Shown here: positions 20,201 through 21,786 of the stretch, piece after piece
How positions within the stretch are numbered: the first letter of the stretch is position 1
Layout of the letters: each line of letters opens with the position of its first letter
Source of the DNA: Alphaproteobacteria bacterium
GTDB lineage: Bacteria; Pseudomonadota; Alphaproteobacteria; Paracaedibacterales; CAIOTO01
Assembly: GCA_030727085.1 (NCBI GenBank)
Contig: JANRCF010000035.1
Span: 3,820 to 46,317 of the forward strand
Direction: 5' to 3'
DNA length: 42,498 nt
The notes under the pieces: model-generated
Told to the model about the DNA's origin: nothing
Databases searched by the model: none
The model's input: only the letters and a program-made list of their open reading frames with translations
Made by a program: the position numbers and the translations under genes

Positions 20201-20735
20201 GTATAAAGATGTGCTTGATCAATTAGGTGTTGTGAAGTCATGTGATTTGCTTGAGCGTGCAACGAGCAGCAATCAAACTGTCGCACTTGCAGGGATTATC
20301 TTAACGAAGCAAGAACGTACATCCAAAAAAGGCGATCGATTTGCCTTTGTGTCATTGACCGATTTGACAGGCGTGTTTGAGGTTGCATTTTTTTCAGAAG
20401 CCTTTGCATCGGTGCGTGATAAGTTGATTCCAGGGCAAGCAGTATATGTAACTGGGAATTTACGTGCGGACGGTGATGAAAGTTTTAGGCTAACGGGGAA
20501 CGGGCTGGAACCGTTAGATAACAAGGCTAAAGTTGATTCGTTGGAGCTATCTATTGACCCTAAACGGGCGAATGTCGCGCACCTTGGCGAGATAGTGCAG
20601 GGCCTTAGAAAGGGTCGAACAGTGCTTCATTTTTTGGTGCCGGTTGCAGGGATTGGTACGATTAAGGTGACACTTTCCGGTGGGTATGACGTAACGCCAA
20701 ATCAAAAAGCGACGCTGCTGCAAGTGTGTGGGTGA
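17268..20735 (+). CDS. dnaE: DNA polymerase III subunit alpha
   Basis: 1155 aa with an apparent TTG start. PHP domain [15 protein letters not shown], polymerase core ([53 protein letters not shown]) and a C-terminal OB region. Confidence 0.97.
   Translation: [1155 protein letters not shown]
20695..20735. repeat. 41-bp direct repeat copy 1 (last 13 codons plus stop of dnaE)
   Basis: The sequence cgccaaatcaaaaagcgacgctgctgcaagtgtgtgggtga recurs at 21746..21786 with a single mismatch. Confidence 0.95.
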
Positions 20736-20744
20736 GAAATATTT

Positions 20745-21740
20745 ATGATGAACGAAAGTGAAATCCTTCTTTATACGACAAAAGAAGGTAATGTAAAAGT
20801 TGATGTGATTTATGGCGATCAGACGATTTGGCTGAGTCAAAAGAAAATGGCATTGCTTTTTGGGGTGGATATCAGAACCATTAGTGAGCATTTTCAGAAC
20901 ATATTTAATAGTGGTGAATTGCTTAAAGATTCAGTTATCCGGAATTTCCGGAATACTGCAACAGATGGCAAAAACTACACCACTCAATTTTACAATTTGG
21001 ATGCCATTATTGCAGTTGGTTATCGTGTTAATTCAAAGCAAGCAACGGAATTTAGAATTTGGGCAACCAATATCTTAAAAGAATTTATCATCAAAGGTTT
21101 TGTTCTTGATTCAGACAGACTTAAAAATGGTGCTAAATTTGGCCACGATTATTTTGATGAATTGCTTGAAAAGATCAGAGAGATCAGGGCCTCTGAACGA
21201 CGATTCTATCAGAAAATAACGGATATTTATGCTGAATGTTCTGCAGATTATGATCCGGCTAGTAGTGTCACAAAGGAATTCTACGCTAAAGTTCAAAATA
21301 AATTGCATTTCGCGATTCATGGGCATACTGCTGCCGAGCTAATTCATGAGCGTGTTAATCATATAAAGCCATTTATGGGGCTAACAACATGGAAGAATGC
21401 GCCAAATGAGAAGATACTAAAATCAGATGTAAGCGTTGCAAAAAATTATTTGTCAGGGGAAGAGATCAAAGAATTAAACCATATTGTGACAATGTATCTT
21501 GATTATGCAGAGCTTCAGGCATCAAAGCAGAAATTAATGCGCATGGATGATTGGGTTGTGAAATTAGATGCATTTCTGTCATTTAACGATTACAGCATTT
21601 TAGCTCATGCTGGCAAGATTAGTGCAGAGATTGCAAAGGCCCTTGCCGAAGAAGAATTTGATAAGTACAGAGTTATTCAAGATCAGTTGTATCAATCTGA
21701 TTTTGATAAACTTATTGGTGAAGTTAAGCAGAAGAGTTAG
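20745..21740 (+). CDS. rhuM: RhuM family virulence/DNA-binding protein
   Basis: 331 aa. The N-terminal block ILLYTTKEGNVKVDVIYGDQTIWLSQKKMALLFGVDIRTISEHFQNIF...YNLDAIIAVGYRVNSKQATEFRIWATNILKEFIIKGFVLDSDRLKNG is the hallmark of the RhuM family. AT-rich (33% GC at 21001..21060, against 57% in dnaE at 18421..18480). Confidence 0.8.
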   Translation: MMNESEILLYTTKEGNVKVDVIYGDQTIWLSQKKMALLFGVDIRTISEHFQNIFNSGELLKDSVIRNFRNTATDGKNYTTQFYNLDAIIAVGYRVNSKQATEFRIWATNILKEFIIKGFVLDSDRLKNGAKFGHDYFDELLEKIREIRASERRFYQKITDIYAECSADYDPASSVTKEFYAKVQNKLHFAIHGHTAAELIHERVNHIKPFMGLTTWKNAPNEKILKSDVSVAKNYLSGEEIKELNHIVTMYLDYAELQASKQKLMRMDDWVVKLDAFLSFNDYSILAHAGKISAEIAKALAEEEFDKYRVIQDQLYQSDFDKLIGEVKQKS

Positions 21741-21745
21741 AGTGG

Positions 21746-21786
21746 CGCCGAATCAAAAAGCGACGCTGCTGCAAGTGTGTGGGTGA
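21746..21786. repeat. 41-bp direct repeat copy 2 (orphan copy of the dnaE 3' end)
   Basis: cgccgaatcaaaaagcgacgctgctgcaagtgtgtgggtga matches 20695..20735 at 40/41 positions. It begins 5 nt after the rhuM stop. Confidence 0.95.

Follow-up and report, generated by a model that had tools for sequence, protein, structure and literature searches.

In a 42,498-nucleotide stretch of alphaproteobacterial DNA (contig JANRCF010000035.1, hereafter the window), a rhuM gene lies between dnaE and a second copy of the last 41 nt of dnaE, and several described systems offer a comparison for this layout. Integrase-bearing islands and prophages located in the 3′ ends of protein-coding genes supply a replacement end, as do e14 and phage 21 at icd and islands of the Salmonella genomic island 1 (SGI1) type at trmE. 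The pdif modules of Acinetobacter and the integrative mobile elements exploiting Xer recombination (IMEX) are small, recombinase-less modules bounded by short sites for host enzymes. Elements flanked by att sites and devoid of recombination genes are called cis-mobilizable elements (CIMEs) in the terminology of reviews on ICEs, the integrative and conjugative elements, and on IMEs, the integrative and mobilizable ones (e.g., PMC5704250). C-terminal (3′-end) displacement at rhs, contact-dependent inhibition (CDI) and type VI secretion system (T6SS) effector loci has been attributed to homology-facilitated illegitimate recombination (HFIR) (Kirchberger et al. 2017, PMC5361080, citing Jackson et al. 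2009 and others).

The rhuM locus has much in common with the displacement loci, at which incoming DNA finds its anchor in a gene's conserved part and brings a new 3′ end with one or more downstream genes, whereas the old 3′ end is pushed downstream as an orphan fragment of variable length, without an integrase. It differs from them in that the anchors are the essential housekeeping genes dnaE and uvrB rather than polymorphic toxin genes, and in that the old and new ends encode the same protein sequence, so that the product has the appearance of a direct repeat. The cargo, moreover, is a defense-type gene or an orphan open reading frame (ORF) rather than an immunity gene, and there is one displaced end per locus instead of an array. 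We give about an even chance to the reading that rhuM was inserted by 3′-end displacement, or insertion-duplication, through general recombination and without a dedicated mobile-element enzyme. Most likely, this is a known kind of event, found here at essential housekeeping genes with defense-gene cargo, twice in one 42-kb window.

The 41-nt repeat and the empty site

The end of dnaE and its downstream copy are identical at 40 of 41 positions, with a start-to-start distance of 1,051 bp, as the preliminary description of this DNA had reported. The features of the locus are the following.

17268..20735, + strand: dnaE (DNA polymerase III alpha), with Pfam PHP, DNA_pol3_alpha, finger, HHH_6 and OB domains
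20695..20735, + strand: proximal 41-mer, the functional last 13 dnaE codons plus the TGA stop, with CCA at the polymorphic Pro codon
20736..20744, + strand: 9-nt spacer GAAATATTT, from the dnaE stop to the rhuM ATG
20745..21740, + strand: rhuM ORF, 331 aa, Pfam PF13310 Virulence_RhuM
21741..21745, + strand: 5-nt AGTGG, from the rhuM stop to the distal 41-mer; right-hand junction of the inserted DNA
21746..21786, + strand: distal 41-mer, a non-functional ghost of the dnaE end, contiguous with native downstream DNA and identical to the single 41-mer of the relative L038 (CCG)
21787..22034, + strand: native dnaE-trmB spacer, 248 nt, of equal length in L038
22035..22709, + strand: trmB-like methyltransferase gene, native downstream neighbor of dnaE (Pfam Methyltransf_4; synteny with L038)
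Junction sequences: occupied left, ...GGGTGAGAAATATTTATG; empty, ...GGGTGATTT[A/G]TTTTATAGC; circle, ...GTTAGAGTGG + 41-mer + GAAATATTTATG

The dnaE coordinates are those of the longest ORF, which starts at the TTG at 17268; gene callers choose 17403. Between the repeats there is nothing but the 9 nt, the 996-nt rhuM-family ORF and the 5 nt, in agreement with the earlier account. The sole mismatch, CCA in the proximal and CCG in the distal copy, is synonymous in the dnaE frame, as both codons specify Pro. With up to 3 mismatches allowed, the 41-mer matches the 42.5-kb window at exactly two places, and 100 dinucleotide-preserving shuffles yielded no match at all, which upholds the claim that the repeat is beyond chance. 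As only these two copies exist, we discarded the reading of the 41-mer as a dispersed repeat, which had been raised as a possible objection.

The dnaE-rhuM-repeat-trmB structure is found base for base in two independently deposited contigs of metagenome-assembled genomes (MAGs), L002 (GCA_030730215.1) and L003 (GCA_030734085.1), which are 99.5 to 99.8% identical. It is therefore not an assembly accident, and its presence in three assemblies rules out an artefact of that kind. Both contigs contain runs of 10 N, in L002 at 2385-2395 inside the proximal 41-mer and in L003 within rhuM. The run in the L002 41-mer is probably a scaffold join at which the assembler broke at the repeat, and it is not evidence of heterogeneity. 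The window also forms part of a 59-kb metagenome contig in the ENA. Its dnaE shares 87% identity with that of a Candidatus Paracaedibacteraceae MAG and about 60% with those of Paracaedibacter and Odyssella.

The difference in base composition is smaller than first described. GC contents of about 33% for the cargo and about 57% for dnaE had been given, whereas we measured 36.0% for rhuM and 47.2% for dnaE, with a window mean of 40.6%. At third codon positions, the GC content of rhuM (32.5%) falls in the range of the neighboring genes trmB (30.7%), ppa (35.8%) and the ABC transporter gene (34.3%), which does not support the view of the cargo as compositionally foreign.

A single copy of the 41-mer at an otherwise corresponding locus, the observation that the preliminary description had called for, is present in L038, a 30-kb Logan contig from SRR24908258 that was reached by way of the dnaE protein cluster and its members. 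Its gene order is that of the window (lptC, lptA, lptB, rpoN, ybjQ, dnaE, trmB, ppa), and it aligns with window positions 13752-20735 at 96.4% and 21746-23689 at 97.8% identity. Both aligned blocks include its single 41-mer (L038 9329-9369), and its dnaE-trmB spacer has the same 248 nt as the window has after the distal repeat. L038 is devoid of rhuM, and its dnaE is followed directly by the distal flank. The window therefore holds a precise 1,051-bp insertion with a 41-bp duplication of the dnaE terminus, and dnaE itself was kept intact, as had been proposed. None of the relatives L006 to L012 has rhuM behind dnaE either. The preliminary description had taken the presence of rhuM in all relatives as an argument against mobility, and this does not apply here. 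At the polymorphic site, L038 and the distal copy of the window have G and the proximal, functional copy has A. The presence of the empty-site allele in the distal copy fits a ghost that is native and a functional end that came from a donor.

Ghost 3′ ends at uvrB and at dnaE of relatives

Other genes flanked by a duplicated 3′ end, which the earlier account suggested looking for, are uvrB in the window and dnaE in the relative L008. The uvrB locus has the following features.

3779..5776, + strand: uvrB, with Pfam UvrB_inter, UvrB, Helicase_C and UVR
5462..5776, + strand: functional uvrB end, last ~315 nt, the proximal copy
5963..8218, − strand: 751-aa orphan ORF without Pfam family, the cargo between uvrB and the ghost
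8372..8686, + strand: ghost 3′ end of uvrB, in frame and gap-free at 88% identity, with its own TGA stop and with the Pfam UvrB and UVR motifs kept

The inserted stretch (5777-8370) has a GC content of 35.7%, compared with 44.6% for uvrB. The ghost differs from the functional end at 38 positions, 29 of them third codon positions, giving a synonymous divergence (dS) of 0.71, a nonsynonymous divergence (dN) of 0.033 and a dN/dS of 0.047. This low ratio indicates that the two copies diverged as functional alleles in different lineages and did not arise by target-site duplication in situ.

L008 represents a related species whose dnaE product is 92.6% identical in amino acid sequence. The end of its dnaE is repeated over 94 nt (6959-7052 and 7986-8079) at 86% identity, or over 108 nt by profile search. 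The repeat brackets a 1,027-bp unit with a minus-strand 273-aa ORF, which is unrelated to rhuM and matches no family. After the distal copy come TAGAGGAATATT, which also flanks dnaE on this side in L006 and L012, and then a homologue of the downstream neighbor of dnaE in L007. In the proximal copy, both the stop codon and the flank are different.

A fragment of 590 nt from the 3′ end of dnaE is present in L012 (2821-3437), a contig from the same MAG as L006, and in L036 (190-753), which comes from an independent sample. In both, it directly follows the stop of a DUF3857/transglutaminase-like ORF. Its dN/dS is 0.01 to 0.03, both relative to functional dnaE genes and between L012 and L036. This fragment may be a further case of displacement; the contigs L006 and L012 do not overlap. 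As a separate observation, the flanks of L012 and L036 are 99 to 100% identical, the fragment itself is only 90% identical and the next ~390 nt are unrelated, with the divergence beginning at most ~15 nt from the junction.

Thus the same layout, an intact gene followed by foreign DNA and by a fragment of its own 3′ end that continues into native DNA, is found at dnaE and uvrB of the window and at dnaE of L008. No terminal ghost was detected at 10 more distant alphaproteobacterial dnaE loci that served as a control. The cassettes at the different loci share no sequence with each other, and the ghosts measure 41, about 100, 315 and about 590 nt, the last value being that of the possible L012/L036 case. 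Such varying lengths fit a generic, homology-anchored recombination process. The proposal that the dnaE terminus is the dedicated att site of an undescribed class of elements does not sit well with the occurrence of the same layout at uvrB, with its 315-nt ghost, and at dnaE of L008, with a ghost of 94 to 108 nt and unrelated cargo. What stands of the proposed new class is the exact insertion-duplication, the empty site and the absence of a recombinase; a dedicated docking element is not supported, since generic recombination fits the variable ghost lengths. The dnaE and uvrB cases in a single 42-kb stretch suggest that this may be a route by which gene content changes generally in these uncultured, host-associated alphaproteobacteria.

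Each species of the clade (L007, L008, L009 and L012) has its own stretch of DNA just 3′ of dnaE, which mostly encodes orphan proteins with signal-peptide-like N termini, making the 3′ flank of dnaE a spot of variable content.

In the window, the 9-nt spacer together with the stop codon reads TGAGAAATATT, which resembles the native flank of dnaE in L006, L012 and the distal copy of L008 given above. Extending over ~10 nt, this likeness is only suggestive, and it would be compatible with homology-anchored displacement and with a site-specific core alike.

The divergence of the ghosts bears on another origin, in which a rhuM fragment was captured de novo at a break at the dnaE terminus. The 41 nt would then have been duplicated in situ, by staggered-end fill-in or by template switching of the type seen in microhomology-mediated break-induced replication (MMBIR), and only events leaving dnaE intact would have survived. 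This origin would require no earlier dnaE-rhuM arrangement, and we found no known donor in which the two genes are adjacent. The window 41-mers are also nearly identical and share all the window-specific synonymous variants (AAA, CTG CTG, CAA and TGA). However, the ghosts of uvrB and of L012/L036 have most of their differences at synonymous sites (dN/dS 0.02 to 0.05) and so are not in-situ duplicates; at least those events therefore need a different origin. In addition, we know of no bacterial process that gives target duplications of 41 to 300 nt, and the 9-nt spacer looks like a native dnaE flank in relatives, which suggests that it arrived together with a dnaE end. We consider in-situ duplication to be quite unlikely.

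Route of insertion

In the displacement reading, DNA of a close relative in which the dnaE end was followed by rhuM would have entered the cell and paired with the resident dnaE by homology. Its far side would have been joined 41 nt upstream of the resident stop, by one-sided homologous plus illegitimate recombination as in HFIR; a single, Campbell-type crossover with a circularised fragment would be an equivalent route to the same product. The outcome would be an intact dnaE with rhuM 9 nt behind it, probably read through from the dnaE transcript, whereas the last 41 nt of the resident gene would persist as a non-functional ghost adjoining the native dnaE-trmB spacer. Later, the arrangement could have spread to relatives by means of ordinary flanking homology, and recombination between the 41-mers could have led to its precise loss, either of which would give the presence/absence polymorphism that is observed. 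The donor and the recombination pathway are thus both conjectural. For rhuM, the exact empty site, the empty-site allele in the distal copy and the parallel cases argue for this sequence of events.

Exchange with diverged relatives appears to be frequent in this lineage. The window and L038 are separated by a background divergence of 1 to 3%, interspersed with strongly diverged patches, which indicates that the window is a recombination mosaic and that the lineage often swaps DNA with diverged relatives. One such patch, in the middle of dnaE (18600-19200), differs from L038 by 8 to 17%, and another, in the ABC transporter gene (23700-25800), by 20 to 37%. Between lptC and the lptA-like gene, the window has an additional ORF of 138 to 140 aa without family match (13238-13698; compare L038 2305-2390). 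The first ~66 nt of lptA, corresponding to the signal-peptide region, also differ between the two sequences, and no direct repeat is present there. This lptC-lptA change appears to be a patch replaced with DNA of a diverged relative.

Several points weigh against displacement. A donor with rhuM directly behind dnaE and without a ghost was found in no genome searched, and the nearest non-identical RhuM is 78% identical. The right junction comes as soon as 5 nt past the rhuM stop, closer than a random illegitimate joint would be expected to fall, and the L012 junction is similarly near the end of an ORF. With one mismatch, the pair of 41-mers is uninformative as to whether an allele was displaced or duplicated in situ, and the orientation of that mismatch is weak evidence because the A/G site varies among relatives. 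L038 may have undergone a secondary precise deletion between the repeats rather than represent the ancestral empty site. The last 436 nt of dnaE have 16 mismatches to L038, versus 5 in the preceding 500 nt (Fisher p 0.007), but this excess fails to indicate a donor tract because most of the differences are L038-specific and not window-specific states. That HFIR would give a duplication instead of a deletion is assumed for the rhuM case. Lastly, the L008 repeat has 12 mismatches in its first 56 nt and 1 in its last 38 nt, and this low-mismatch block nearly coincides with the window 41-mer. Such clustering would leave room for a defined recombination core and hence for a trans-acting recombinase.

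We searched for the components that such a system would have. No integrase, transposase or resolvase family was detected with Pfam among the scanned window ORFs of at least 100 aa or in the ORFs adjoining dnaE in relatives, and there was no recombinase among the 25 listed families of the 31 that other window ORFs matched. Neither an inverted repeat in or near the cassette nor a tRNA or Rfam feature near it was detected, no match to the dif core pattern was found in the window at up to 3 mismatches, and the folding of the 41-mer is weak (−9.9 and −3.0 kcal/mol with RNA energy parameters). The earlier description of an element devoid of recombinase, promoter and inverted repeats is supported. 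The exact 41-mer had no match in Joint Genome Institute (JGI) metagenome contigs or IMG/VR, and the fully degenerate back-translation of TPNQKA[TA]L[LQ]QVCG* had none in the JGI contigs. The JGI collection missed even L037, a JGI contig whose dnaE end fits the pattern, and therefore both negatives in it say little about the clade.

Compared with the described elements, the locus combines features of several. Like the e14 and SGI1-type islands, it has a 3′ end duplicated in the manner of attL and attR (here 40 of 41 nt), an intact gene, and a distal copy contiguous with native DNA; unlike them, it has neither integrase nor excisionase, rhuM being its sole ORF at ~1 kb, and the length of the duplication varies between events. 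It also corresponds to a CIME in being att-flanked, by direct repeats, and in containing no recombination or transfer genes. CIMEs, however, derive from ICEs or IMEs, are usually several kb long and need the cognate integrase of an element sharing their att site; no such integrase or related ICE or IME using the same site was found in the 42-kb window or next to dnaE in L006 to L012 and L038. With integron cassettes it shares a promoter-less single ORF, very tight boundaries and presumed expression from upstream transcription, but it has no attC-like imperfect palindrome, intI or attI, and its repeat is the coding sequence of the upstream gene. Together with the weak folding of the 41-mer and the absence of an integrase family, this led us to reject an integron gene cassette. 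As for pdif modules and IMEX, the likeness lies in a small, recombinase-less gene module bounded by short sites; here the module sits in the chromosome, at a gene end, and an Xer-dependent module was rejected since the window has no dif-like site of the XerC/XerD type.

Two further candidates were discarded. A transposon or insertion sequence would not account for the absence of a transposase and of terminal inverted repeats, or for duplications of 41, about 100 and 315 nt. A diversity-generating retroelement is contradicted by the polarity of the mismatch, with A in the gene copy and G downstream, the opposite of a template repeat; moreover, no reverse transcriptase family was found.

Site-specific integration would then have to rely on a recombinase encoded elsewhere or on a helper, acting on an integrase-less minimal element similar to a CIME or an Xer module. 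The 41-mer would be its attP, and it would be excised as a 1,051-bp circle that re-integrates at the dnaE terminus. The attL-cargo-attR layout is perfect for such an event, with a 41-bp block of identity that regenerates the gene end, an exact empty site in L038 and cassette boundaries as tight as 9 and 5 nt. The second, unrelated 1-kb single-gene insert at the dnaE end of L008 points the same way, as the single mismatch in its last 38 nt and the 21% divergence of the 56 nt upstream would correspond to a core and homeologous arms. We nevertheless regard this alternative as unlikely. No integrase, resolvase or transposase family is present in the scanned window ORFs or beside dnaE in seven relatives. 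The 41-mer is surrounded by neither inverted repeats nor core-type sites, and a dif-like site and a tRNA are lacking as well. Outside the dnaE part, the cassettes have no sequence in common, and cargo meets ghost at a different position in each case (−41, about −108 and about −590). For the uvrB locus, whose 315-nt ghost is homeologous throughout, a second, different system would be required. Finally, rhuM was never repeat-flanked at the 10 other loci checked, and the 41-mer is absent from IMG/VR and JGI contigs.

A broader version of this idea is that the last ~40 nt of dnaE, and perhaps the ends of other essential genes, serve in this Paracaedibacteraceae-like clade as the place where promoter-less single-gene cassettes, rhuM in one species and an unrelated ORF in another, dock and are excised by an enzyme of the host or of a helper, encoded elsewhere. 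The arrangement would be integron-like without the platform, the transcription of essential genes serving to express defense genes. We judge it decidedly improbable. If a trans-acting recombinase did operate at the dnaE terminus, it would represent a new type of minimal cassette system.

It might also be argued that the locus is the remnant of a larger island or prophage, integrated at the 3′ end of dnaE, from which the integrase and other genes have since been deleted. Integrases commonly target and duplicate gene 3′ ends, and prophage WO regions and defense islands are among the places in which RhuM genes occur. Such a history would require two separate deletions that trimmed the element to within 9 nt and 5 nt of one ORF, yet no relative examined has a larger island at dnaE, and the L008 and uvrB inserts are integrase-less as well. 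An island remnant is therefore very improbable.

If 3′-end displacement is the correct reading, small accessory genes, here a candidate phage-defense gene, can be added behind essential genes without mobile-element machinery, and the ghost end is the only trace left. Ghosts would then mark past gene gain from diverged relatives and also serve as substrates for precise loss and further exchange. This pattern has hitherto been discussed mainly for polymorphic-toxin loci (rhs, CDI and T6SS). Ghost 3′ ends can be surveyed by a simple genome-wide search.

RhuM and other features of the window

RhuM matches Pfam PF13310 at 375 bits (cut-off 33.7; E 1.9e-112) over residues 63-314, in line with its earlier assignment to this family, and PADLOC PDC-S05 models with E values down to 5.6e-151 over residues 3-329. 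From these matches, rhuM is a candidate single-gene anti-phage system (PDC-S05). RhuM has been described as a predicted toxin domain tied to restriction-modification loci (PMC3710099). Homologues that are 67 to 78% identical over their full length (P0004-P0120) were found in Wolbachia, Thiolapillus, Jorgensenbacteria of the candidate phyla radiation, Rickettsiales and others. They are located on plasmids or in prophage-like (including prophage WO) or defense contexts. For a widely transferred accessory gene, this degree of conservation is unusually high.

The idea that rhuM forms a self-contained type of cassette did not hold at other loci. No direct repeat of at least 12 nt was found around rhuM at 10 of them, in Wolbachia prophage-like regions and beside AbiEii, Fic and helix-turn-helix genes, and no flanks around the ORF were conserved among them. 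The AlphaFold2 model of RhuM is of moderate confidence (pLDDT 71.6). Foldseek returned weak matches to DdrC (TM 0.22 to 0.30) and winged-helix proteins, and the PDB structures matched by the model include no recombinase or nuclease fold, which is a weak argument against self-mobilization by the cargo. Sequence searches with RhuM gave no match in the PDB or in NCBIfam.

Our scan revealed no promoter-like or terminator-like site on the plus strand between dnaE and trmB, including the dnaE-rhuM gap. Because rhuM starts 9 nt after the dnaE stop and no such site lies between them, it is plausible that rhuM is read through from the dnaE transcript. Both its presumed role in defense and its co-transcription with dnaE are deduced from sequence features.

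The window contains another repetitive feature, without a tie to the rhuM finding. A 486-aa ORF (31303-32763) has tandem 24-nt repeats at 31730-31913 and a related copy at 31544-31631. It is probably the window ORF that matches the Pfam ALTTAQ repeat family.

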